Below are positions 1 to 10,526 of a stretch of DNA of 10,526 nt, in pieces. A program made the translations under genes and the position numbers. The notes under the pieces were generated by a model. It had not been told where the DNA came from and ran no database searches. It saw nothing but the letters and a program-made list of their open reading frames with translations. Numbering within the stretch: position 1 is the first letter of the stretch; each line of letters starts with the position of its first letter. Source of the DNA: a virus (taxonomy: Duplodnaviria > Heunggongvirae > Uroviricota > Caudoviricetes); IMG/VR virus record IMGVR_UViG_2609459769_000020, one strand, 5' to 3'.

Positions 1-546
1 CGTTTCCCGTAAACCGACGTTATCGATAAAAGCCCCTTTATCCGGAATGTCTGCGCCGTTCTGCTCCCTGCGCAGGTAACGGTTATCACCTTCGCTTTTG
101 CTGTAAACATCCAGATTATTACGGGCGGTTCCCTTATTCTCCAGGTCGGCGAGATTCTGATCCTTCGCCAGGGCATTAACGTCAGCGGGACCAAGACTGT
201 TTTTTGTGGCAAGCGTCCCCAGACCAAGATAACCACGGGCCAGACGCTGGGCCTCCGCACCGGCATCAGCAATTTCTTTCAGGTTATTTTTCCGGGAAAA
301 GGCATTCGCAGCGATAATGGCTTTAATGGACAGCGTAAGCTGGTTTAACTGCGCCTTATCCGGCTGAATACTGGCTTCAGCCAGAATATTCAGCAGTTCG
401 GCCTGGAGAATATTCAGCCAGTCCTGACCAATCCAGCTGATACCTTTTTGTCCGTCACCTTCGGTAAACCAGGTGGTGGTATTACTCTGCGCCGGTGCCA
501 GCGCAGGCATATTCGCCACGCCGGAATTATTATCAACATGAAACAT
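1..546 (-). CDS. Phage tail fibre protein, N-terminal portion (5' end in window at 546; continues past position 1)
   Basis: Absent from the ORF track because it runs off the edge. My own minus-strand translation from ATG 546..544 is open for 182 codons to position 1: MFHVDNNSGVANMPALAPAQSNTTTWFTEGDGQKGISWIGQDWLNILQAELLNILAEASIQPDKAQLNQL...RGYLGLGTLATKNSLGPADVNALAKDQNLADLENKGTARNNLDVYSKSEGDNRYL... SD GAGGAG lies about 9 nt upstream. The WFTEG...DWLN..Q.EL and LGLGT.AT...NNLDVYSKSEGD motifs match my memory of enterobacterial phage tail-fibre N-termini. Confidence 0.6.
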   Translation of the reverse strand, partial: MFHVDNNSGVANMPALAPAQSNTTTWFTEGDGQKGISWIGQDWLNILQAELLNILAEASIQPDKAQLNQLTLSIKAIIAANAFSRKNNLKEIADAGAEAQRLARGYLGLGTLATKNSLGPADVNALAKDQNLADLENKGTARNNLDVYSKSEGDNRYLRREQNGADIPDKGAFIDNVGLRET

Positions 547-686
547 TAAATAGTCTCCTCTTCATGGCTGTTTGCATAAACGTAAATAAACGTCTGCCAT
601 GCAGGCTTATAACGGTTCAGAATACATTCCAGCGCACCGCCTTCATAAATACGCAGCGGCGTGAGAATATCATCCAGCACATTCAT
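546..686 (-). CDS. Small ORF (46 aa) bridging the gemA-like stop and the tail-fibre start; possibly a remnant 3' end of a baseplate/tail gene rather than an independent gene
   Basis: My translation: MNVLDDILTPLRIYEGGALECILNRYKPAWQTFIYVYANSHEEETI. Its ATG (686..684) overlaps the gemA-like stop and its TAA (548..546) overlaps the tail-fibre ATG (TAATG). No recognisable family. Confidence 0.25.
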   Translation of the reverse strand: MNVLDDILTPLRIYEGGALECILNRYKPAWQTFIYVYANSHEEETI

Positions 687-886
687 ATTCCGGTAACCGG
701 CTTCTGACGCACTTTAAAACCGCGTTTTTTGAAAACATCCAGCACGCGGGATAACTCATCCGGTGACATATCCCGGCAACTGGGTTTGCCGGTGGCTGCC
801 AGTAGTACGGATGTGTAGGTCTCATGGTCAAGCTGTAGATCGCGTTTTGCGACATGTATTAAGGTAATCAGGGAAGCGCGATTCAT
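683..886 (-). CDS. gemA: GemA-family (Mu gp16-like) protein, apparently truncated (67 aa)
   Basis: ORF-track protein MNRASLITLIHVAKRDLQLDHETYTSVLLAATGKPSCRDMSPDELSRVLDVFKKRGFKV... fits the GemA/DUF1018 N-terminal pattern (LIHVAKR.L.LD.ETY...TGK.S...MS..EL..VL..FK..GF) as I recall it. SD GGAGA lies upstream of the ATG at 886. I recall family members being considerably longer (over 100 aa); here the frame stops right after the conserved N-terminal block. Confidence 0.5.
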   Translation of the reverse strand: MNRASLITLIHVAKRDLQLDHETYTSVLLAATGKPSCRDMSPDELSRVLDVFKKRGFKVRQKPVTGI

Positions 887-950
887 TATCGTGTCTCCGT
901 AACAACAGGCGGCATGGCAACGCCGCCCGGATAAAACTAAAGGTATCGAT

Positions 951-1361
951 ATGAAAATAGATTACGATGAAGTATTAAGTATTCTCACAACTTTTCAGGA
1001 TGCTGAAACACCTTTCCTTACACTACAGGATCTGGGCATGGCTGAGGCAGAAGGAGAGGAAAAGGATAAAAAAGTTTTTCATCTTATGCTTCTCGCTGAT
1101 AATGGCTCAATTGTTAATGGTGATATGCAGTCAGAAACACCCAAATATATTGGTTTCTTTTTCCATTCTCTGGGCGTTGGTTTCAGAAACACGCCCATTA
1201 TGCTTACCCAGCAGGGGCATGATTTAGCTAACGCCCTGAGAAAAAAACCAATCCTTGAAAGAATCAAAAAGGAGTTTACAGACGCACCATTTGATCTAAT
1301 TAAAGAAGTTACCAAATCAATGTTAACCAGGTTCGTCAAAGAACGTATTGGGATTGACTGA
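951..1361 (+). CDS. Hypothetical protein (136 aa), opposite-strand insert; possibly DUF2513-like
   Basis: ORF-track ORF with AAAGG about 7 nt upstream of the ATG. Visibly more AT-rich than neighbouring phage genes and the only convincing plus-strand gene inside the minus-strand operon. The LTQQGHDLANALRKKPILERIKKEF segment faintly recalls small prophage-associated DUF2513 proteins; unverified. Confidence 0.5.
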   Translation: MKIDYDEVLSILTTFQDAETPFLTLQDLGMAEAEGEEKDKKVFHLMLLADNGSIVNGDMQSETPKYIGFFFHSLGVGFRNTPIMLTQQGHDLANALRKKPILERIKKEFTDAPFDLIKEVTKSMLTRFVKERIGID

Positions 1362-1631
1362 ACAACTTAATTCAGCCAGTAATCGCAGGGCGGCGACAGC
1401 CGCCTGCTTGTCACTTCTTTTAGCTATTTCCGCAAGAGTATGCACAATCCATAACGGACTTAACGCCACGGCTGAATCCAGAATCATGTCATCCATAATA
1501 ATTTCTGGCATATCCCGCTTGTCACATTCTTTATCCATAAAAGAAACGAATTTCTCTGCATCTTCCGGTTTCATGCCTCCGGCGATAAGGATTTTGCGAT
1601 ATTCATAAGACGATCTTAATTCAATACTCAT
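1323..1631 (-). CDS. Hypothetical protein (102 aa)
   Basis: ORF-track ORF with ATG at 1631 and SD AGGTGA upstream. Its 3' end overlaps the plus-strand gene by 39 nt. No recognisable motif. Confidence 0.45.
   Translation of the reverse strand: MSIELRSSYEYRKILIAGGMKPEDAEKFVSFMDKECDKRDMPEIIMDDMILDSAVALSPLWIVHTLAEIAKRSDKQAAVAALRLLAELSCSVNPNTFFDEPG
1385..1429 (+). terminator. Candidate intrinsic terminator for the plus-strand gene
   Basis: GCAGGGCGGC (1385..1394), loop GACA, GCCGCCTGC (1399..1407): a 9-bp GC-rich stem with one bulged G, followed by the T-rich stretch TTGTCACTTCTTTTAGCTATTT. It works only in plus orientation and lies inside the convergent minus-strand ORF 1323..1631. Confidence 0.25.
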
Positions 1632-1646
1632 TATTCACCTGCCTGC

Positions 1647-1997
1647 TTAATCTGTTTCCAGTGCTTTGCTACGGGCTATAGCCTCACATTCAAAAAATAC
1701 CGACTCCGGCACGCGCTCTTTTAATTCACGAACAAGGAAATCATTAACGCGTTCATGACGTCTTATATTTCTTTCCTTTTCCTCCTGGCGCAATACAGCA
1801 AGGCGGTATTCAACAGCCCGGCGTTGTTTCTGAAAGACAGCCAGTGCTTTTCTGGCAGCATTACGCCATGCATCATCGCCACATGGTGCGTATTCAAGCT
1901 GAAATTTAATCTCTTCAATAGTTTCTTTGATTTTTGCCAGCAAGCTAAGACAGTCGCTTATTGTCTCCAGCTTTTCATTATCAATATAACTTCTCAC
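1647..1997 (-). CDS. Hypothetical protein with predicted coiled-coil character (about 116 aa from revised start)
   Basis: The track ORF 1647..2039 starts at a GTG with a 46-nt overlap into the upstream gene. An in-frame GTG at 1997..1995 sits about 6 nt after a strong SD GGGAGGTGA and overlaps the upstream TGA, so I place the start there. Charged heptad-like sequence (KIKETIEEIKFQLEY...RLAVLRQEEKERNIRRHER). Confidence 0.5.
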   Translation of the reverse strand: MRSYIDNEKLETISDCLSLLAKIKETIEEIKFQLEYAPCGDDAWRNAARKALAVFQKQRRAVEYRLAVLRQEEKERNIRRHERVNDFLVRELKERVPESVFFECEAIARSKALETD

Positions 1998-2323
1998 GCA
2001 TTCACCTCCCGTAATTCCGGTAAAGCCGAAATATGACACCAGTGCGTCACCTGTCCGTCTTCATCTTCAAGGCAGGCTCCGGTTTCTTCATCAACAAAAA
2101 AGCCTTCATACCCCATATGGCCGATGCGCAGCTCCTGACGGTGACCATACTGAACAATCAGCACGACAGCCTCCATATCAGGTGGGAAAGCATCATTCAG
2201 TGAATGCCAGGGATAACCGCGTAAATCCCCGAAATAAACACCGGTCAGCGTTCCGCCACAGAGCGGCATTCCGGCGGCACACACAAGAGGTTCATCTGAT
2301 TCAACAAATAAGGTCGTTATCAT
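1994..2323 (-). CDS. Hypothetical protein (109 aa)
   Basis: ORF-track ORF; its ATG overlaps the upstream stop (ATGA coupling at 2320..2323). No recognisable motif. Confidence 0.5.
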   Translation of the reverse strand: MITTLFVESDEPLVCAAGMPLCGGTLTGVYFGDLRGYPWHSLNDAFPPDMEAVVLIVQYGHRQELRIGHMGYEGFFVDEETGACLEDEDGQVTHWCHISALPELREVNA

Positions 2324-2871
2324 GGCGTTAACTCCCGTAATACAGCGTCCTCGGCAGTCCGGCGACGGTAATAAACTGCGTGAGCAGAATGTTCAGATAT
2401 TCCAAACTTTTCGCCAATTTCCCGGAATGACAGACGGCGTGGGTAATCGGAATCACGCAGCGCACGTATAAGACGTACATCATCATCAGATATGCGCGTG
2501 CCGGGGCGTAACTCTCCGCACTTTGTTAATCCAGCACCAATCATTCCTGCCCGACATCTGACAGAATCTTTATTACGTCCGAGATATTCTCCCATTTGCT
2601 GGCAGGTCATTGTTCTGGCATTTTTTCGAATAAACTTATCTTCATCAGGTGTAAATCTTGGGTGTTTATATTTCAGTAACTCCGGGTATGAACTGCGCAA
2701 TACACCAGTCCGGTTATATACAGCCCAGACAGTTCTTTTTATTCTGGCAGCAATATCCTTAACCGGGGTGGATGAATAAAGCGCAATCAGTAGCGCATCT
2801 TCTTCAGGTGTCCACGCGCGGACATGAGCGGGTGTACGACCTTTTCGCCCCATGTGTTGTAAAATCATCAT
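2320..2871 (-). CDS. Putative DNA-binding regulator: two Myb/SANT-like repeats plus a C-terminal HTH resembling the Mor/C activator family
   Basis: ORF-track protein (183 aa). Repeats WTPEEDALLIALY...IAARIKRT and FTPDEDKFIRKN...MGEYLGRNKDSVRCR; C-terminal SDDDVRLIRALRDS...LSFREIGEKFGISEHSAHAVYYRRR. SD GGGGGTGA upstream of the ATG at 2871. Confidence 0.55.
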   Translation of the reverse strand: MMILQHMGRKGRTPAHVRAWTPEEDALLIALYSSTPVKDIAARIKRTVWAVYNRTGVLRSSYPELLKYKHPRFTPDEDKFIRKNARTMTCQQMGEYLGRNKDSVRCRAGMIGAGLTKCGELRPGTRISDDDVRLIRALRDSDYPRRLSFREIGEKFGISEHSAHAVYYRRRTAEDAVLRELTP

Positions 2872-2874
2872 ACA

Positions 2875-3390
2875 TCACCCCCTGACTCGCTTTTCGGCAG
2901 CATAAAACTCATCAGACAGAATTTCGGTCATTTTCCGTTTTGCGGAATCATCTTCGCACTGAAGATAAATCACATTGTCAACGCAGAACCAGTTCACGGG
3001 ACCATACAATATTGCTGAGAAGTCAATACCCAGCCAGAACAACAGGGCATCGGTTCTGGCATACGTGACGGGCGAATATTCACGCCACAGACTGTTCAGT
3101 TCATCAGAGGCAACACGCAGGGCTTTAGGGATACGTGATGTGCGCGGTGTGCAGCTCCAGCCATTCGACGCAGTCGGTTTTCGCCATAAGTCGCGATGAA
3201 AAGGATATTTGTCCTCCGTAAAACGCAGTCCCTTAAAACAAAAACCACTGATACTGAATTCAAATACCGACCGGCACGCAACATTCAGCACGGCCTCAAG
3301 GCGTTTCGCCTCATCTTTTACCGTCTGGCAGTCCTGCTGGTATTTTTGCCACGCAGCCAGCGCGGAAGGGTTTGATGTTTTAAAGAACAT
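2875..3390 (-). CDS. Hypothetical protein (171 aa)
   Basis: ORF-track ORF with SD GGAGGTG upstream; its ATG overlaps the upstream TAA (TAATG at 3390). No recognisable motif. Confidence 0.5.
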   Translation of the reverse strand: MFFKTSNPSALAAWQKYQQDCQTVKDEAKRLEAVLNVACRSVFEFSISGFCFKGLRFTEDKYPFHRDLWRKPTASNGWSCTPRTSRIPKALRVASDELNSLWREYSPVTYARTDALLFWLGIDFSAILYGPVNWFCVDNVIYLQCEDDSAKRKMTEILSDEFYAAEKRVRG

Positions 3391-3923
3391 TACGCCACCT
3401 CCGCAGATATCCCGGCAGGCGCTGCTGTCCGGTCAACAATCAGGTAGCGCAGAACACGCGCGGTGATATTCCAGCCGCTTAAACCGCAGATGATGACACC
3501 CAGGCGAATGTCGATATACGCCATCACAAACTGGGGCACGCCTTCTTTCATGGCCTGCTCATCAACTTCAGCCACCACATAAACGGTTTCACAGGTCAGA
3601 ACGCCCTGAGCAAATTCCCACGCCATCGACGGAATATCATGCCCCTCAATCCATGGCAGGGATTTTCTGAAGCTGCACCACTGAACATCATCAGCCGCAG
3701 ATTCCTGTCTGCATTTGCGACGAATCGGCTGCACCGGGCGGGAACGCGGAATATCATAAAAACCGTTACATTCCGTCAGCACCCCGGCATCAACCGCATC
3801 ACGCAGAAAATAAACCATGGAGGATGGCGGCATATTCATTTTTTCAGCCAGTACGCCGCAGGTCAGACGCCCGTAAATACTCAGCCAGTTTTTAACCCCT
3901 TCAAGCACTTTTGCATCAATCAT
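3390..3923 (-). CDS. Hypothetical protein (177 aa), possible N-terminal winged-helix DNA-binding domain
   Basis: ORF-track ORF with strong SD GGAGGAA upstream of the ATG at 3923. The N-terminal segment LAEKMNMPPSSMVYFLRDAVDAGVL is HTH-like; this is a weak call. Confidence 0.5.
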   Translation of the reverse strand: MIDAKVLEGVKNWLSIYGRLTCGVLAEKMNMPPSSMVYFLRDAVDAGVLTECNGFYDIPRSRPVQPIRRKCRQESAADDVQWCSFRKSLPWIEGHDIPSMAWEFAQGVLTCETVYVVAEVDEQAMKEGVPQFVMAYIDIRLGVIICGLSGWNITARVLRYLIVDRTAAPAGISAEVA

Positions 3924-3926
3924 GAA

Positions 3927-4469
3927 TTATTCCTCCGTCAGCGCCACATATTCAGAATGTTTAATTTCCTGGCATTCTTCAGGAATACATCCGTTTATTT
4001 CCCTGCCATAAGCGCCCACTTTAAACACCACGCACAGGGCATCACGGGAGAACGAAGGGGTCCACCAGGAGTCCGTGTTAAACATGGAGGGGATTCTCAT
4101 TACCCCCAGCTTTTCACAGAGCCAGACAAGGAAATCAGGACGCTTTCTTAACTCGCGTTCAGCGGCTTCAATCATTGCGGCAATCGCCGGTCCTTCAGGG
4201 CATGACTCATCAGGTCTGGCTATAAAGCACTGTCCGCCACCGATAAAAGCCACATCATCGCGCTTACGCCAGCCCGCAGGCAGAGCACCGGCAAAATAAA
4301 ACTCACTGATTCTGTCCATGGCGAACGGCTTTAAGCGCAATCCGGCAGCGCCTGTATTTTTCAGTAATGTCCGAAGAATACTGTTGCGTAGCGGTAAAAC
4401 AGCCTGTTGATATTTGGTGAAATATTTATTTGTCTGCACACGGTCTAATTTGAAATAAAAATATGCCAT
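3927..4469 (-). CDS. Hypothetical protein (180 aa)
   Basis: ORF-track ORF with SD AAGGAA upstream of the ATG at 4469. First gene after the 97-nt AT-rich gap downstream of gam. No recognisable motif. Confidence 0.5.
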   Translation of the reverse strand: MAYFYFKLDRVQTNKYFTKYQQAVLPLRNSILRTLLKNTGAAGLRLKPFAMDRISEFYFAGALPAGWRKRDDVAFIGGGQCFIARPDESCPEGPAIAAMIEAAERELRKRPDFLVWLCEKLGVMRIPSMFNTDSWWTPSFSRDALCVVFKVGAYGREINGCIPEECQEIKHSEYVALTEE

Positions 4470-4566
4470 ATTTCCGATTCCTTATTTTCAGCTTTCAGGC
4501 GCAAGCAGTCCCCTGACGCGAGCGCCATAATTAAAATGAAGTGATATTTAAATAATTAATGCGGTG

Positions 4567-5097
4567 TTATTTATTCAGTCCGGCATCCTGTTCAAAAGGC
4601 TCGACATAAAAACTTTCAGCGCCTTTATTCACCTTTATACCGGCAATGCCTTTCACCGCATCCGGCTCCGCCAGGACGGCTTCCTTGTTCACTTCCTCTT
4701 TCGTGCGGATGAATCGCTCAAGCCCCATACGGCGCAGCGTGTCAATCACACCTTCCACATCACGGCTGACGCTGCATGATGGCGTTCCCAGCCGCCATGA
4801 CACCGTTCCGGTGGTCAGATTGGCAGTTTTGGTTTTGCCGCCGTTCGTCAGCTCATCACGGTTGGTTTTACACCAGTCCTGAATCCCTTTAAAAAGCACT
4901 TTGATTTGCTTTTTAAGATTTTCAATCTGCGGCGTATAACGGGCGGTGATTTCTGCCACTTCATCATTCATCGCCGTTTCCAGGCGCAGCGCCTCTCGCT
5001 GAATATCGCCCAGGGTGCGGATATCGCGGCTGACTTCTTCGCGGGTCTGCGGTGCGGCCTCGGCTACAGCCTTTAATTTTGTAACGCGTTTTGCCAT
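4567..5097 (-). CDS. gam: Host-nuclease inhibitor protein Gam (Mu Gam family, Ku-like DNA-end binding)
   Basis: ORF-track protein (176 aa) MAKRVTKLKAVAEAAPQTREEVSRDIRTLGDIQREALRLETAMNDEVAEITARY...CKTNRDELTNGGKTKTANLTTGTVSWR...ERFIRTKEEVNKEAVLAEP...EPFEQDAG closely matches my recollection of Mu Gam in length and in the LQREA.RLE.EMND, NRDELTNGGK.KTANL, RFIRTK.E.NKEA and PFEQ.AG blocks. SD AAGGA upstream. Confidence 0.8.
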   Translation of the reverse strand: MAKRVTKLKAVAEAAPQTREEVSRDIRTLGDIQREALRLETAMNDEVAEITARYTPQIENLKKQIKVLFKGIQDWCKTNRDELTNGGKTKTANLTTGTVSWRLGTPSCSVSRDVEGVIDTLRRMGLERFIRTKEEVNKEAVLAEPDAVKGIAGIKVNKGAESFYVEPFEQDAGLNK

Positions 5098-5108
5098 TTT
5101 GTTTTTCC

Positions 5109-5402
5109 TTATTGCAATGTATCTGGTGCGTTCTGCAAGGAGCGGCGCTCAATGCTGCTTTTCACCCCCAGAGCCTGCATGGAACCCTGAAGTTCATCTG
5201 TCAGAAACTGAATAATTGTGGGGCTGTGATATTTAAGAATTTGCGCATAAACATCACATGGGCCTGTCGGTCTGTTCTCCGTATCACGTTCGATTTTTAC
5301 AGTGGCAGTAACCCCCTCCGTGATTTCCTGACTATCATTACCGGCTGGCTTTACTTCATGCATTACGTGGTTAAATTCAAAAATAACGCGTACTTTGCTC
5401 AT
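5109..5402 (-). CDS. Hypothetical small protein, paralog 2 of a tandem pair (97 aa from revised start)
   Basis: The track ORF 5109..5429 has an internal ATG at 5402 placed 4 nt after the upstream TAA; this gives MSKVRVIFEFNHVMHEVKPAGN..., which parallels the N-terminus of the upstream gene. The two 5' ends also align at the DNA level. Confidence 0.45.
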   Translation of the reverse strand: MSKVRVIFEFNHVMHEVKPAGNDSQEITEGVTATVKIERDTENRPTGPCDVYAQILKYHSPTIIQFLTDELQGSMQALGVKSSIERRSLQNAPDTLQ

Positions 5403-5406
5403 GGAA

Positions 5407-5679
5407 TTACCCCTGCTGATTAAATTCATTACCGTTAATAACCCCGGAAGCCATGCCCCTGTCTTTCATGAATGCACTGGCTTTCATTGCCACAAGCTCT
5501 GCGAAGTTTCTGCTTTCCGCGAGCATAACCACCCCAAAAATCATGGCGGGTCCATCACCTTTCTGCTTTATCCCGGTTGAACGTATGTCCAGACTTACCC
5601 CCATGCGCACTGTTCCATCAGCGTTTTTATGGATAACGTGCTCCTTATATTCGAAAATAATGTGTACGACTTTACTCAT
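5407..5679 (-). CDS. Hypothetical small protein, paralog 1 of a tandem pair (90 aa)
   Basis: ORF-track ORF starting MSKVVHIIFEYKEHVIHKNADG...; its ATG overlaps the upstream TGA (ATGA). Confidence 0.45.
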   Translation of the reverse strand: MSKVVHIIFEYKEHVIHKNADGTVRMGVSLDIRSTGIKQKGDGPAMIFGVVMLAESRNFAELVAMKASAFMKDRGMASGVINGNEFNQQG

Positions 5680-5957
5680 CCTCTGGTCCTCGTTCTGTTT
5701 GGATAACTGACCCGGCGTCTGACCTCACGGCAGAACCGAATCATGGCATTAAAGGCTTCTTCCTCCGTCACCGCTTCCGGTATCCCCGGAACCAGTAACT
5801 GCTCCTGTTCATCACGTCCATGACGCGCCATAACCTCAATCACATGCCGTACCGTGGCAGGCTTTCCGGCAACTATCGGCAATGCACCTTCCGGCAGGAC
5901 GTAACCAAACTCAATAAGACCACTCGACCACGCCCATGCAATGAGATTTTTTTTCAC
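5676..5957 (-). CDS. Hypothetical protein (93 aa, GTG start)
   Basis: ORF-track ORF. The start is GTG at 5957, with a strong SD GGGAGGTG about 6 nt upstream. Confidence 0.45.
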   Translation of the reverse strand: MKKNLIAWAWSSGLIEFGYVLPEGALPIVAGKPATVRHVIEVMARHGRDEQEQLLVPGIPEAVTEEEAFNAMIRFCREVRRRVSYPNRTRTRG

Positions 5958-5958
5958 C

Positions 5959-6213
5959 TCACACCTCCCAGTAAACCGTGCAGCCGCTGATGCGGGTGGC
6001 CTTCACACGGCGGCGCAGGCCGTTGGTCTGTATGGTGATTTCAATTTCACCGGTTCCCTGCACGTTGCCTACCGGCGGCGTGGTTTTCAGTGCAAAACGT
6101 TGCGGATAGCGCTTACTGCGTTCCAGTACCGCACCGGCAAGTTCGGTCAGACGGCGCGCGCTGTTCAGGGAGTCGAATAAATTCATTTTGTTACCGCAGG
6201 ATTGCATATTCAT
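5959..6213 (-). CDS. Hypothetical protein (about 84 aa; start uncertain)
   Basis: Track ORF 5959..6225. The first ATG has no SD, whereas AGGTG precedes the internal ATGs at codons 5 and 7, so the start is more likely 6213 or 6207. Confidence 0.35.
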   Translation of the reverse strand: MNMQSCGNKMNLFDSLNSARRLTELAGAVLERSKRYPQRFALKTTPPVGNVQGTGEIEITIQTNGLRRRVKATRISGCTVYWEV

Positions 6214-6225
6214 ATAACACCTCAT

Positions 6226-6447
6226 TTAGCTGACTTGTTTCGCACCAACAGAACGGCATATTCCGCTGTAAACTTCTGTCGCACCTTCGCGATCAAGTCC
6301 GGCAGATATCACCATTCGTGTGCGGTCATTAAATTCAAAAAGTAAATCGCCACATTCTTTATTTTCGGCCAGTGAAATCACCTTCACGTTATCGAAATTA
6401 ACCAGGTAAAAGCGTCCGTAAATATCAGGAATATTAAATACCGCCAT
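6226..6447 (-). CDS. Hypothetical small protein at the position of Mu kil (first gene after B); function not established
   Basis: Track ORF 6226..6453 begins at a GTG. An ATG at 6447 with SD AGGTG 7 nt upstream sits 2 nt after the B stop codon. The kil assignment is by position only. Confidence 0.4.
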   Translation of the reverse strand: MAVFNIPDIYGRFYLVNFDNVKVISLAENKECGDLLFEFNDRTRMVISAGLDREGATEVYSGICRSVGAKQVS

Positions 6448-6449
6448 AA

Positions 6450-7391
6450 TCACACCTGTGAGAGTAATTCAGGGTTGGTATAAACCTCTTTAAAGGCCGC
6501 ATTAATATGTTTTTCTGTCAGCGCCGCGCCTTCACCGCTGGCGGTGAGCCACGCCTGGTTAAGCGTATGTGTCAGAACGCGTAACGCTCCCGGCTTTTCA
6601 GCGATAGCCTGCATGACGGCCAGCTCGGCCTCACCACTGATCCCCCACGCCATGGCAATGGCCAGCACATCCGCCTTTTTGGCCTTGCGAAGTTGTTTTG
6701 TACGGGCAAGACGGCTGAACAGGCGCGATAAATCATCAAAGGCGCGGCGTCCACCTTTAAACAATCCGCGCGGGTTACCAATAAGCACCATCCCGATCCC
6801 CGTGGCGTCCTGAATTGCCCGGAGTTGCTCCAGACCGTCAATACCAAGATGATCCGCCTCATCCACAATCACCAGTCCACGCGTTCCCATCAGGCGACGG
6901 CGGATGGCGCGGGATAATGCCCCTTTGTTCGCGCGGGTGTAATCAATCCCCAGCGCATCGGCCAGCTCCAGCAGACACTCCGTGACGCTGGAGTGCGCGG
7001 GTGACAGGGTGATCATCCAGGTGTTTGGTTGCTCCTGGCAGTAATTACGGGCAGTGGCCGTTTTACCCACACCCGGTACGCCCACAATAACGTTAATACA
7101 GCCCATCAGGCGAACCGCCTGAAACAGTGCGCGCAGCTCCTGGACTGTCTGAGTTTCCACAAACTGCGGCGGTTCCGGCAGTGCGCTTTGTTTATTCCAG
7201 TTCTCATACCAGGAGCGCAGGGAAGCAGCCACAGCAGCGTTATCGCCTTTATATTTTCCCTTACGGAAAGCCGATAATGTGCCGTCGGAAATTCCCGCCT
7301 CTCTGGCGATGGCATACTGCGTCAGTACGCCGCCATCAATAAGTTCATCAATGGTCTTGATTACATCGTTAATATCGGTCATATTATTCAC
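6450..7391 (-). CDS. B: Mu B-like ATP-dependent target DNA activator (AAA+ transposition ATPase)
   Basis: ORF-track protein (313 aa). Walker A GVPGVGKT and Walker B LVIVDEADHL are present, and the N-terminal HTH-like segment and overall length match my recollection of Mu B (312 aa). The track start is GTG at 7391; an ATG at 7382 preceded by GAGG may be the true start. Confidence 0.85.
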   Translation of the reverse strand: MNNMTDINDVIKTIDELIDGGVLTQYAIAREAGISDGTLSAFRKGKYKGDNAAVAASLRSWYENWNKQSALPEPPQFVETQTVQELRALFQAVRLMGCINVIVGVPGVGKTATARNYCQEQPNTWMITLSPAHSSVTECLLELADALGIDYTRANKGALSRAIRRRLMGTRGLVIVDEADHLGIDGLEQLRAIQDATGIGMVLIGNPRGLFKGGRRAFDDLSRLFSRLARTKQLRKAKKADVLAIAMAWGISGEAELAVMQAIAEKPGALRVLTHTLNQAWLTASGEGAALTEKHINAAFKEVYTNPELLSQV

Positions 7392-7464
7392 CTCGCTTGA
7401 GACAGCATTCTCCGAGACTGAAACCTCAAATAACCTGAGTCACCCCTCGGGTTATTTTTTTATT

Positions 7465-9555
7465 TCAGGCCAGCGGATCACTTTCTTTTAATTTCGCTTC
7501 GAGCAGTTGCAATCCCCGCTGGAAATTACGCTCGTATTCTTCATCAGGTTCATCGTCAGCGACCGGTTGCTGAACGGTCACCGTATTACCCACAGGGCGG
7601 TATATGTTTTCCAGCCAGGGCTCCTGCGGCTTGTGCTCCAGCACGTTGACAACCTCATCCTCGGCATCACGGATTTTTTCCTCTGCGCGTTTACGCATGC
7701 CTTTAAGGCGCTGCTGCTGTTTGTAGTATTCCGCGCTGACAGGGAAGGCTTCGCGTTTATTGCCGTCCCATACCGCCTCGCAAATCACGCTGCCATCCGG
7801 GCGGCGCACGGTAATTCGTTCGGCATCATGAATGTCATAGCTGATAAGTACCTTACGGCCATGCTCGTCACGCAGCTCGGGCGCGTAGTAAATATTATTC
7901 AGCCAGCGTATTTCACAGCGTCTTACAGGGCGCTCCACCATCGGCCGGAACATATCCCGCAGTTCAACATCGGACAGCCATTCAATTTCCGTGTCCTCTT
8001 CCGCCAGGCGTTTTTTTCTGAACTCCGCCGGGCTGTAATGTTTACCGTTCGGCTTCATGGGTAATTCATCGTGCGGCCGGTTGTTGTACCACTCAACACC
8101 GTCACGAATGGCATCAATCAGTTCAGACCAGGACGGTAAATCACGCATCGCTGACTGCTGCCGGGCGTTCAGCCGTTTGCCCTGTTGCAGGGCACTGAAT
8201 GCCGAGCGTAAATCGCGGTTGGTTTTACGTAACGTCTCGCGATCTGCTCCTTTCCCGAAATAGGTGCGGTATTTACGGGCTATGCGCATCGGTAATGTGC
8301 GGTTAAGCCGTTCGATAATGCCCCGTCCCTGCGGATTACCGGCAATCCCTGTCGGGTGATTAATCCCCAGTCGTGGCAGTATCCCCACAATCTCCTTATC
8401 CAGGACGTCGGCGGTTTCCCCGGAGCCATTATCCGAGTAATACAGAAACGGTTTGCCATGATGGCGAATACCGTGCTGTATGGCACCGGCTACGGCGAAA
8501 ACATTTTCAGCCAGGTCAAGACTCCAGCCCACCACAAAGCGCGTGCCACCGTCGATAACAAAGGTCACTTCCGGTGCGAATGGCCGCCCGTGAACCGGGT
8601 GCGCGCATTTCAGCTTCATGCCGTGACCGTCACCAATCCAGACATAATTCACCGGCATTCTGGACCAGTCGCGGCGCGTGAATCCCTCAAGCTGACGGTA
8701 TTCACTGCCAGTTACCCGGCCTTTTTGTTTCACCACTTCCGGCAGTTTCTTCATTGCGCGGCGAATGGTGTCATAAGAGGGCATGATATCGAGCATATAA
8801 GGCTCATCAGCGTGCCGGTGCTGCCATTCAGCAACAAAATCCTCGTAAGCCTCGGTCATTGGTCGGCCGTTTGACTGGCGATACTGCGCCAGAAATTCGG
8901 GCAGCCAGTTAATATCTTCGGCTTTTATTTCCTGGCGTTTACCCGGTGCCAGTAAAAGCAGGCGTTCAGCGGCGTTCTGTGCCTTGTTAAAGGCCGCAAT
9001 CCAGCGTTTCAGCGTGATTTCACTCAACGCGCGGCTGTTTCCCTTTTTGGCGTTCGCCGTCTCAACCATTGCCACAATGCGCTCGTCCAGTTGTGATCGT
9101 GCCAGGCTGTTAACGAGGAACCGGATAGCCTTAGCGCAACTAAAGCCGGGTTGTTGCGCGATTTTCAGCACCTCGCTGACGATCGCTATTCGTGCCTCTG
9201 CCACTTTACGTTGGTTTTCAGTCAGGGCATTGAGGCGTTCGACCATCAGTTGGGGTGATCCGCGATATGCCTCCACCGCATCAACCACGGCAGGTGAGCG
9301 TCTGGCCTTTGTCACCACCGGAGCCGGTGATTCATCGGCTTTTTGCGTCATCAGTTGCAGGGCGTAGCGTTCACGTAATGCCTGCTGCGTCACTTCAGGT
9401 AAACAGTCGATGCTGTATTCAGTTGCTTTAGAGCCTGAGCGACGACGGGAACAACAGCTTTTCCCTTGTACGTAACGTTGTAATGCCTGGCGAATACCTT
9501 TTGTTGTAGCAGGCATTCCGGGCGCGCCAATCAGTTCTTTTGCAATGACATACAT
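7465..9555 (-). CDS. A: Mu A-like DDE transposase
   Basis: ORF-track protein (696 aa). Candidate catalytic DDE triad in the segments WIGDGHG, YYSDNGSG and GRGIIERLNRTL, with spacing consistent with the Mu A/retroviral-integrase fold. Position is immediately downstream of ner (the ner stop and A start are 1 nt apart). Confidence 0.85.
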   Translation of the reverse strand: MYVIAKELIGAPGMPATTKGIRQALQRYVQGKSCCSRRRSGSKATEYSIDCLPEVTQQALRERYALQLMTQKADESPAPVVTKARRSPAVVDAVEAYRGSPQLMVERLNALTENQRKVAEARIAIVSEVLKIAQQPGFSCAKAIRFLVNSLARSQLDERIVAMVETANAKKGNSRALSEITLKRWIAAFNKAQNAAERLLLLAPGKRQEIKAEDINWLPEFLAQYRQSNGRPMTEAYEDFVAEWQHRHADEPYMLDIMPSYDTIRRAMKKLPEVVKQKGRVTGSEYRQLEGFTRRDWSRMPVNYVWIGDGHGMKLKCAHPVHGRPFAPEVTFVIDGGTRFVVGWSLDLAENVFAVAGAIQHGIRHHGKPFLYYSDNGSGETADVLDKEIVGILPRLGINHPTGIAGNPQGRGIIERLNRTLPMRIARKYRTYFGKGADRETLRKTNRDLRSAFSALQQGKRLNARQQSAMRDLPSWSELIDAIRDGVEWYNNRPHDELPMKPNGKHYSPAEFRKKRLAEEDTEIEWLSDVELRDMFRPMVERPVRRCEIRWLNNIYYAPELRDEHGRKVLISYDIHDAERITVRRPDGSVICEAVWDGNKREAFPVSAEYYKQQQRLKGMRKRAEEKIRDAEDEVVNVLEHKPQEPWLENIYRPVGNTVTVQQPVADDEPDEEYERNFQRGLQLLEAKLKESDPLA

Positions 9556-9556
9556 A

Positions 9557-9805
9557 TCATGACGCCTTTCTCATATAGCTCTTAACCTGGTATCGACTGG
9601 GCCAGATTTCTTCAGGTGATACCCCAAGAGCATCAGCAATTATTTGCTGATACGGTCGGCAAGGAGTACGTAATACGCTTTTCAGCGAATCCCTGCTGTA
9701 ACCAGCCTTTAAAGATAAAGAGCGCAGTGATAAGCCAGCCATGTGTAAGCGCGCCTTGATGATTTCAGGCGGCCAATCGTGATCTGAAACTTCTCTTCTA
9801 CTCAT
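9557..9805 (-). CDS. ner: Ner-like DNA-binding protein (Mu Ner / E. coli Nlp family)
   Basis: ORF-track protein (82 aa) ...DWPPEIIKARLHMAGLSLRSLS...QQIIADALGVSPEEIWPSRYQ... matches the recalled Ner/Nlp pattern, including the C-terminal IWPSRY block. SD GAGGAAG upstream of the ATG at 9805. Confidence 0.8.
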   Translation of the reverse strand: MSRREVSDHDWPPEIIKARLHMAGLSLRSLSLKAGYSRDSLKSVLRTPCRPYQQIIADALGVSPEEIWPSRYQVKSYMRKAS

Positions 9806-9995
9806 ACTTCCTCTATTCTAAAAAGTTACCCGCGCGGATATTCGTGCGGATATCTGTACGGGTAAATAATGCATCACCAAAAATACCAAATCAAGGTATT
9901 TTTGGTATTTTGGCTAATTTTTGCTTTTATCCTTATTTTTCAATTGGATAAATAGAAAGAAACCTTTCCTTAGAAAAGCACCAAGAGGTATCTTT
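9806..9995. promoter_or_regulatory. Divergent repressor/ner control region (operators and promoters for early and repressor transcripts)
   Basis: A 190-nt AT-rich gap between divergent regulator genes. It contains a tandem 8-bp direct repeat GCGGATAT (9834..9841 and 9846..9853) and a perfect 12-bp inverted repeat plus a further half-site copy. A TAGAAT -10-like hexamer sits on the minus strand just upstream of the ner SD. Exact promoters were not resolved. Confidence 0.6.
9876..9906. repeat. Perfect 12-bp inverted repeat ACCAAAAATACC-N7-GGTATTTTTGGT, candidate operator
   Basis: Read directly: 9876..9887 and 9895..9906 are exact reverse complements with a 7-nt spacer. A third direct copy GGTATTTTGG overlaps at 9904..9913. 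Confidence 0.6.
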
Positions 9996-10526
9996 ATGTC
10001 GCAGGGAAAAGAACCTGTTATTGAACGTATTGGAATGCTTACAAAGCGCTACCCTTCAAGAAGTGCAGCTGCCAGAGCGTGGGGAATCAATATCAACACA
10101 TTAAACAGCTATTTCAAGGGAGGACAAACACAACCAGCCCCCAGAGAAAGTATCCTTATACGAATTTCTGAAAGTGAAGGCGTTAGTCTTGAGTGGCTTA
10201 AAGAGGGCAAGGGTGAATTACCAAACGATATTGGTATTTATGGTAATTTTGGTTGTTCTGGTGATAAGGGAGATCAGCTTACACAGATGCTTTCATTCCT
10301 TACGAAAGACGAACGAGAACAGTTAACCAATCTCCTTGCTCGCAAAGGTGTGGAGACGGTTCTGACACTGCTGAATAAAGAAAACCAGGATTTATTACAA
10401 CTAGAAGGCAGGAAGCGCCTGGCTGCGTTGATGATTGTAGATATGCCAGACGATTGCGTCAGAGAGATTTTGGAAAAAACCGAGACAAGTAGGCAATCAA
10501 ATCCGGTAGAATCTAAAGCGGGTTAG
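9996..10526 (+). CDS. Prophage repressor (functional and positional analogue of the Mu/D108 c repressor)
   Basis: The track ORF 9921..10526 has an internal ATG at 9996 preceded by SD AAGAGG, which I take as the start (176 aa, MSQGKEP...). N-terminal HTH-like segment with GVSLEWLKEGKGE, typical of phage repressors; the C-terminal helical region loosely resembles the Mu c C-terminus. Divergent from ner. The TAG stop falls on the last three bases of the window. Confidence 0.7.
   Translation: MSQGKEPVIERIGMLTKRYPSRSAAARAWGININTLNSYFKGGQTQPAPRESILIRISESEGVSLEWLKEGKGELPNDIGIYGNFGCSGDKGDQLTQMLSFLTKDEREQLTNLLARKGVETVLTLLNKENQDLLQLEGRKRLAALMIVDMPDDCVREILEKTETSRQSNPVESKAG

Follow-up and report, generated by a model that had tools for sequence, protein, structure and literature searches.

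A stretch of 10,526 nucleotides (nt) from the IMG/VR virus record IMGVR_UViG_2609459769_000020, here called the window, contains at positions 6450 to 10526 a set of genes that can be identified by sequence as the immunity and transposition module belonging to a Mu-like transposable prophage of Sp18 type from Escherichia coli. A six-frame listing of open reading frames reveals a nearly unbroken series of minus-strand genes between positions 683 and 9805 and a single plus-strand gene at the right edge (Table 1). The genes of the module follow the order of the early genes of phage Mu, with a c-like repressor gene on the plus strand, followed by ner, A and B on the minus strand, and all four are full length. 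They thereby form the complete repressor, ner, A and B set of a transposable prophage that had been proposed in a preliminary description of this DNA, and the coordinates of the reading frames and the Pfam and PHROGs matches of their products agree with that proposal. Two of the frames remain open upstream of the start codons given in the table, namely that of B, which is also open from a GTG codon (6450-7391, 313 amino acids, minus strand), and that of the repressor, which is open up to a TTG codon at 9921. The stop codon of the repressor gene is the final triplet of the window.

Table 1. Features of the window, in window coordinates; slashes mark the borders of joined segments.
Feature	Position	Strand	Remarks
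Tail-fibre gene, 5' part	1-543	-	runs off the window
gix site of invertible segment	4-29		TTATCGATAACG TC GGTTTACGGGAA is the reverse complement of these positions
C-terminal remnant of YmfQ-family baseplate gene	546-686	-	46 amino acids
Deletion junction	681-696	-	join at the TA of 694-695, GCCGGT/TA/CCGGAAT on the minus strand
Truncated gemA (gp16)	683-886	-	67 amino acids instead of 170; positions 1-45 of 119 of the Pfam GemA profile
Rest of early region	951-6453	-	kil-like, gam, gp11-like and small genes without known function; reading frames and Pfam/PHROGs
DUF2513 gene	951-1361	+	opposite strand within the early operon
gp11-like gene	3390-3923	-	early region
gam	4567-5097	-	early region
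kil-like gene	5959-6225	-	early region
B, MuB-type AAA+ target-DNA activator	6450-7382	-	310 amino acids from ATG at 7382, the start annotated in relatives
Transposase A	7465-9555	-	696 amino acids
Catalytic residues of A	D309 codon 8629-8631; D375 codon 8431-8433; E415 codon 8311-8313	-	from alignment
Second recurrent breakpoint, inside A	8700-8714	-	GGG/TAACTGGCAGTGAAT; intact in the window
ner-like early regulator	9557-9805	-	82 amino acids
Divergent control region between ner and repressor	9806-9995		operator-like repeats
Immunity repressor (c-like)	9996-10526	+	176 amino acids from ATG at 9996; leftmost gene of the element

Domain and profile matches identify each of the four products. 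B matches the Pfam families Phage-MuB_C (E = 8e-25) and AAA_22 (4e-18), A matches Mu-transpos_C (2e-17) and HTH_Tnp_Mu_1 (2e-6), and Ner matches HTH_35 (2.5e-19). Among the PHROGs, A is recognized as a transposase (3e-211), B as a DNA transposition protein (6e-110), and both Ner (3e-26) and the repressor (7e-61) as transcriptional repressors. The same four genes are annotated as ECs_4943-4946 in the prophage Sp18 of E. coli O157:H7 Sakai, with identities of 97.7% for the repressor, 100% for Ner, 97.4% for A and 99.7% for B. An alignment of the four proteins with those of four independent relatives and of Sakai Sp18 reveals no inactivating lesion, the lengths being equal and the identities lying between 97.4 and 100%. 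This includes the regulatory genes, which had been described as complete and whose products, the repressor and Ner, have the same length as the proteins of the relatives.

The transposase A has the domain order of Mu-type transposases, involving an N-terminal winged-helix part, an RNase H-like core with the residues D, D and E, and a Mu C-terminal domain, and a MuB-type AAA+ ATPase is encoded directly after it. Its identity to MuA is only 22-26%, yet the two proteins can be aligned from end to end (BLASTP 9e-11; hhalign probability 97%). The solved MuA structures are not significant sequence matches for A (E = 0.25-0.74), and the core of A scores better in sequence comparison against retroviral integrases than against these structures; therefore, the relation of A to MuA is shown by pairwise and profile alignment. 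In these alignments, D309 and D375 of A correspond to D269 and D336 of MuA. The third catalytic residue, E415, lies within the motif GNPQGRGIIERLNR, which agrees with the motif of the catalytic E157 of Rous sarcoma virus integrase. As hhalign set MuA E392 against R430 of A and not against E415, the assignment of this residue comes from the integrase alignment only. All three residues are invariant in eight homologues of A (78-97% identity), and the 120 hits listed in a large protein search for A are all at least 77% identical to it, which makes them a weak guide to the deep conservation of the catalytic triad. B is 48% identical to MuB over 300 amino acids, matches the PDB entry 8xvb (E = 3e-84) and contains both a Walker A motif (GVPGVGKT) and a Walker B motif (LVIVDEAD). 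The catalytic motifs that A and B had been reported to retain are thus present in both proteins.

The repressor is identical to WP_005136380.1, and its Sakai counterpart ECs_4943 is annotated as 'regulatory protein'. It matches PHROG 3037 ('transcriptional repressor') over its full length and PHROG 7148 over residues 91-174 only, and no match was found in Pfam or NCBIfam, so that its assignment is based on PHROG 3037 and on the position of the gene. Resemblance to the Mu c repressor is confined to the C-terminal part (residues 95-171; 29% identity over 80 amino acids, E = 0.04). The N-terminal part matches general CI-type repressor families, and its comparison with the N-terminus of A revealed no similarity, whereas Mu c and MuA share their N-terminal domain. 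As far as can be told from its sequence, the DNA-binding domain of the repressor is not of Mu type. At least two other types of repressor are found at the same slot in relatives, one of 181 amino acids and one of 203 amino acids with HTH_3 and Phage_CI_repr domains, in support of the idea that the immunity gene at this slot can be exchanged. The Ner protein, in turn, is 43% identical to Mu Ner. Both regulatory genes are divergently transcribed and located within about 1 kb of the left end of the element. The control region between them contains a perfect 12-bp inverted repeat, ACCAAAAATACC-N7-GGTATTTTTGGT, at 9876-9906, followed by an incomplete third copy reaching 9918, as well as the tandem 12-mers CGCGCGGATATT and CGTGCGGATATC at 9831-9854, which lie within a 19-nt inverted repeat (9826-9865). 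These repeats may serve as operators. A simple scan of the control region found no consensus sigma-70 promoter.

The left end of the element, which had been predicted to lie shortly to the right of the window, is located 250 bp beyond it. The truncated gemA product, which is unique to the deletion described below, was found by exact look-up in 33 blocks of public assemblies. Carriers of the deletion include the E. coli strains 3-020-07_S3_C1 and 2-460-02_S4_C2 (proteins KDY62056.1 and KDY72253.1). Among the contigs which contain the window, L006 differs from it at one position over 10,526 bp, and L007 and L018 each differ at two. All three extend exactly 250 bp past position 10526 to the terminus 5'-TGTAACCAGG... 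(5'-TGTAACC) and then continue into the host gene yddE, which adjoins nhoA. The left host junction reads ...GTGGGGCAAT/TGTAACCAGGTGAATCATTTGATACC..., and the empty yddE site reads GGGGCAAT/ACGTTG. In four independent insertions of relatives, located in different genes, similarity is lost at the identical nucleotide of the left end.

In accordance with what had been expected of this terminus, it begins with 5'-TG and is accompanied by repeated sites of the type bound by transposase A, three of which (TTTGATAY) lie within the 250-bp extension. In an intact relative of 38,238 bp, TTTGATAY occurs eight times, compared with an expectation of 1.85. Six of these eight copies are terminal and face the interior of the element, three of them at distances of 18, 113 and 165 nt from the left terminus and the other three at 18, 40 and 75 nt from the right one. 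This spacing recalls the L1-L3 and R1-R3 sites of Mu. A matrix built from these same six sites gives them the six highest scores among 76,426 positions, the seventh scoring far lower.

At the right end, the Sp18-type family differs from Mu. In 19 of 19 contigs which include this end, the sequence before the flank reads ...CGCCGCGCTATA (terminus ...GCGCTATA-3', CTATA-3'), and the same holds for Sakai Sp18. The right terminus is thus TA-3' instead of CA-3', and the register of the first right-end repeat also demands the final A. Furthermore, the target duplication comprises 4 bp and not the 5 bp of Mu, which the preliminary description had expected, in all four end pairs that are informative because their fifth flanking base is other than A. 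The duplicated bases are TAAA in Sakai Sp18, CATC in LC727881 (as its depositors annotated), AGAA in IMG 2529293218 and AACA in IMG 2548876695, and two more end pairs are compatible with 4 bp. The 4-bp duplication is a property of the Sp18 subgroup and no argument against transposition. The end evidence is located at L084 (471-480 and 39221-39234), L017 (174-180) and L016 (11134-11144), and the right-end loci are L029-L044.

Only a part of the prophage remains in the copy from which the window derives. Positions 1-704 match tail-fibre and baseplate genes from an Sp18-type prophage at 99.7% identity, and positions 690-10526 represent the early region of the same prophage type, with an identity of 99.9% to the collinear copy of E. 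coli JKHS016 and of about 94% to many copies in Shiga toxin-producing E. coli (STEC). The join between the two parts maps to positions 9776 (in gemA) and 32078 (at the 3' end of the YmfQ-family gene) of the intact JE86-ST02 prophage, with 22.3 kb missing between them, and the parent sequences share an exact TACCGG at the join (13 of 15 nt overall). The internal deletion that had been suspected is therefore real: both parents are mapped, and the same junction occurs in the 33 blocks of independent NCBI, Logan and ENA assemblies, metagenomes included. Missing as a result are mor, the lysis genes, every head gene, the greater part of gemA and almost the entire set of tail genes. Without mor, lysis and head genes, virions cannot be formed, which agrees with the earlier suggestion of an element without virion production.

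About 10.1 kb of early DNA remain. By analogy with the contigs L045 and L011, the remaining right arm would measure about 7.1 kb and comprise the tail fibre, gin, a DUF6645/SASA gene and com-mom, so that the whole element is predicted to measure about 17.2 kb, with a predicted right junction of ...GCGCTATA/CAAT/ACGTTGTG. Structurally, the element would be a natural mini-Mu of about 17 kb.

This structure can be compared with that of several known systems. Sp18 of Sakai, a prophage of 38.8 kb that is predicted to be intact (PMC2669165), and the Sp18-like phages of STEC have the same gene order, termini and end repeats. In contrast to Sp18, the present copy lacks the 22.3 kb of late genes, is inserted in yddE and not in sorM, and carries the DUF2513 gene, which O157-type copies lack. 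This gene is also found in the copies of JKHS016 and JE86-ST02, while O157/O103-type copies carry other small genes instead. With Mu, the element shares the c/ner/A/B/kil/gam/gemA layout by the left end, the 5'-TG left terminus, the domain order of A, the relatedness of B and Ner, and the arrangement of the end sites, in which the left end has a terminal site and two distal ones and the right end has three sites set close together. The distance from the repressor stop codon to the end of the element is 250 bp here and 338 bp in Mu. The differences from Mu concern the low identity of A to MuA, the length of the target duplication, the right terminus and the lack of a domain common to repressor and transposase. 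Laboratory mini-Mu or Mud elements (e.g. Mu3A) likewise retain c, ner, A and B without virion genes in an architecture with both ends, of which the left one is demonstrated here. Such laboratory derivatives transpose but need a helper for packaging. The present element, whose mobility is putative, differs from them in being natural and in keeping the arm with tail fibre, gin, DUF6645 and com-mom. Finally, the Yersinia phages vB_YpM_5 and vB_YpM_6 match 1.46 kb of gene A at 81% DNA identity, but these complete phages have no other relationship to the element at the DNA level.

By analogy with phage Mu, the repressor, which is encoded rightward in window coordinates, would keep the leftward early operon (ner-A-B-kil-gam and the following genes) silent. 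Once repression is lifted, A would assemble on the repeats at both ends, nick the termini and connect them with target DNA that the ATPase B has captured, which would leave a duplication of 4 bp. Without mor, lysis and virion genes, this process would yield no particles. The mobility of the Sp18-type family is established, as 14 different left flanks occur among the loci examined. Sp18-like phages have also been described at variable insertion sites, including sites inside Shiga toxin (Stx) phages, with one to three copies per genome (PMC10132054, PMC7430833). For the present copy, we infer the capability of transposition from its intact parts only. Taken together, the Sp18-type module, the location in yddE, the 22.3-kb deletion, the mini-Mu structure of about 17 kb and the proposed mode of action form the joint explanation that we consider best and regard as probable.

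Several observations weigh against continued mobility of this copy. No second insertion site of a deleted copy came to light, and L006, L007 and L018 all share the same yddE junction. Because all deleted copies that reach host DNA are located at this one site, there is no sign of movement after the deletion. The sister contigs mostly differ by 0-2 substitutions per 10 kb and the lineage is therefore young; A and B are intact in these contigs, but with divergence close to nil their conservation is uninformative about selection. In one sister contig, L008 (JONA01000087.1), A ends eight codons early. This early stop results from a cluster of four substitutions at the 3' end of the gene (window 7462-7490), which may be real or sequencing errors. 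The right junction of the deletion lineage (...GCGCTATA followed by CAAT and yddE) was not found in two scans of metagenome contigs of the Joint Genome Institute (JGI), the host side of the expected junction was not found in IMG/VR, and none of the right-end contigs in IMG/VR has the flank expected for this lineage. Its right arm has been traced, in contig L011, only past gin to the DUF6645 gene. In addition, Sp18 was not inducible by mitomycin C (PMC2669165).

These points lend some weight to the possibility that the element is an inert remnant, in which the module looks intact merely as a result of the recent date of the deletion, and which is fixed in yddE, decaying and vertically inherited. 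In variants of this explanation, the right end is lost or damaged, or repression is impossible to lift. The single insertion site of all deletion-bearing contigs that reach host DNA, the unrecovered right end of the lineage and the near-identity of most sister contigs, which points to a young clone, are all in line with it, as is the presence of several deletions, some of them truncating A, in other copies of the family. However, neither the genes A, B, ner and repressor nor the left end can be told apart from their counterparts in relatives which have evidently moved, and in L011 the right arm extends at least to gin and DUF6645. We therefore consider an inert remnant to be conceivable but somewhat unlikely.

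A further explanation is that the element depends on a helper, transposing alone and being packaged by a co-resident intact Sp18-type phage in the manner of a laboratory mini-Mu. Genomes often contain one to three Mu-like phages (PMC10132054), and IMG genome 2609459799 indeed has both a deleted copy (L066) and a second Sp18-type copy (L061). This second copy, however, is itself defective, as its A gene is truncated at the hot site described below and 11.7 kb of tail genes (20212-31874) are missing, and there is no evidence of spread to further sites or hosts, which leaves helper dependence very improbable. That the tail/early join at about position 690 stems from a chimeric contig can practically be discarded, for although assemblies break at the inverted repeat with which the window starts and the overlap at the join is short, the identical junction recurs in all 33 blocks of independent assemblies and the shared sequence is far below any assembler k-mer.

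The tail-side breakpoint of the deletion (window 695/696; 32078/9 in the intact prophage) is common, exact to the nucleotide, to at least five deletions with different partners. These partners lie at positions 2250, 4788, 9776, 24496 and 27486 of the intact prophage; they are found inside A, just after B and an adjacent 73-amino-acid gene, in gemA (the deletion of this window), at the start of a tail-assembly gene and in a DNA-circularisation gene, and all five joins share TA. The corresponding loci are L045-L054, around position 10000, and L055 (reverse complement), at position 32078. For a second recurrent breakpoint, located within A, four different partners occur in other strains (L052, L054, L047, L061). 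Over the 13 mapped joins, TA is shared in nine and T alone in two. Both hot sites have the form TA-N8-TGAAT, and the true left terminus has the form TG-N8-TGAAT (TGTAACCAGGTGAAT) in the same register and on the same strand. The hot-spot sequence reads TACCGGAATATGAAT. An unbiased IMG/VR sample contains three contigs out of 32 that are broken at the first hot site.

Several origins of these breakpoints were considered and rejected. A bias of the look-up does not account for the fixed breakpoint; as there is no in-frame start codon in the 87 bp examined upstream of the 46-amino-acid frame, breakpoints anywhere in those 87 bp would give the same product, yet all five coincide. The Gin invertase is an improbable cause of the deletions, since the hot sites lack the TC core and the clear half-site consensus of gix sites. 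Ordinary transposition of a sub-element into upstream targets, proposed for the partner side, does not fit, as real insertions show no TA after the duplication, and a ligation of restriction cuts with CCGG overhangs does not fit either, as the joins are one base short of that outcome.

The remaining candidate causes are the transposase acting on pseudo-ends, a precise nick followed by 3'-anchored joining, and an unknown TA-specific enzyme. According to the first of these, Sp18-type deletions would not reflect random decay but arise by a site-directed process in which the transposase of the phage nicks pseudo-ends, generating natural mini-Mu derivatives, and the deletion of this window would be among its products. 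The nicked pseudo-ends would then be joined together, or the nicks would become breaks repaired by 3'-anchored joining. A search with the matrix derived from the six true end sites detected no transposase-binding site beside the hot sites, which weighs against the pseudo-end idea, and we put it forward as a speculative proposal that is more probably wrong than right by a wide measure.

With respect to its novelty, the element is a deleted, new representative of a known prophage family, and the finding is right but largely ordinary. It adds little to what is on record, given that Sp18-type prophages and their A and B genes are already annotated and that defective copies are common. It does provide a worked example in which public data sufficed to recover the left end of a truncated contig together with its end repeats and its insertion site. 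It also highlights that the 4-bp duplication and the TA-3' right end are in use in a large group in E. coli, whose transposase cluster alone comprises about 7,000 sequences. The recurrent, nucleotide-exact breakpoints are the part most worth following; if they are driven by the transposase, they would constitute a natural route to mini-Mu elements and to the domestication of prophages.

Some further observations concern the retained right arm and the closest relative. The arm includes an invertible tail-fibre segment, which is bounded by inverted repeats of 86 nt (L045 10663-10748 and 11910-11995) and adjoined by gin. Most assemblies of the element break within a few hundred bases of the window start, and this is consistent with heterogeneity in the inversion or with a collapse of the repeats. 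Between gin and com-mom, the arm encodes a SASA/DUF6645 protein of 684 amino acids (L045 12724-14778). The SASA family includes sialate O-acetylesterases, and the gene may be an accessory gene whose usefulness favours the maintenance of the right arm. The copy of JKHS016 (L014 7121-14763), which is the closest complete relative, is itself rearranged, with a 6-kb head-tail segment inverted and further deletions.

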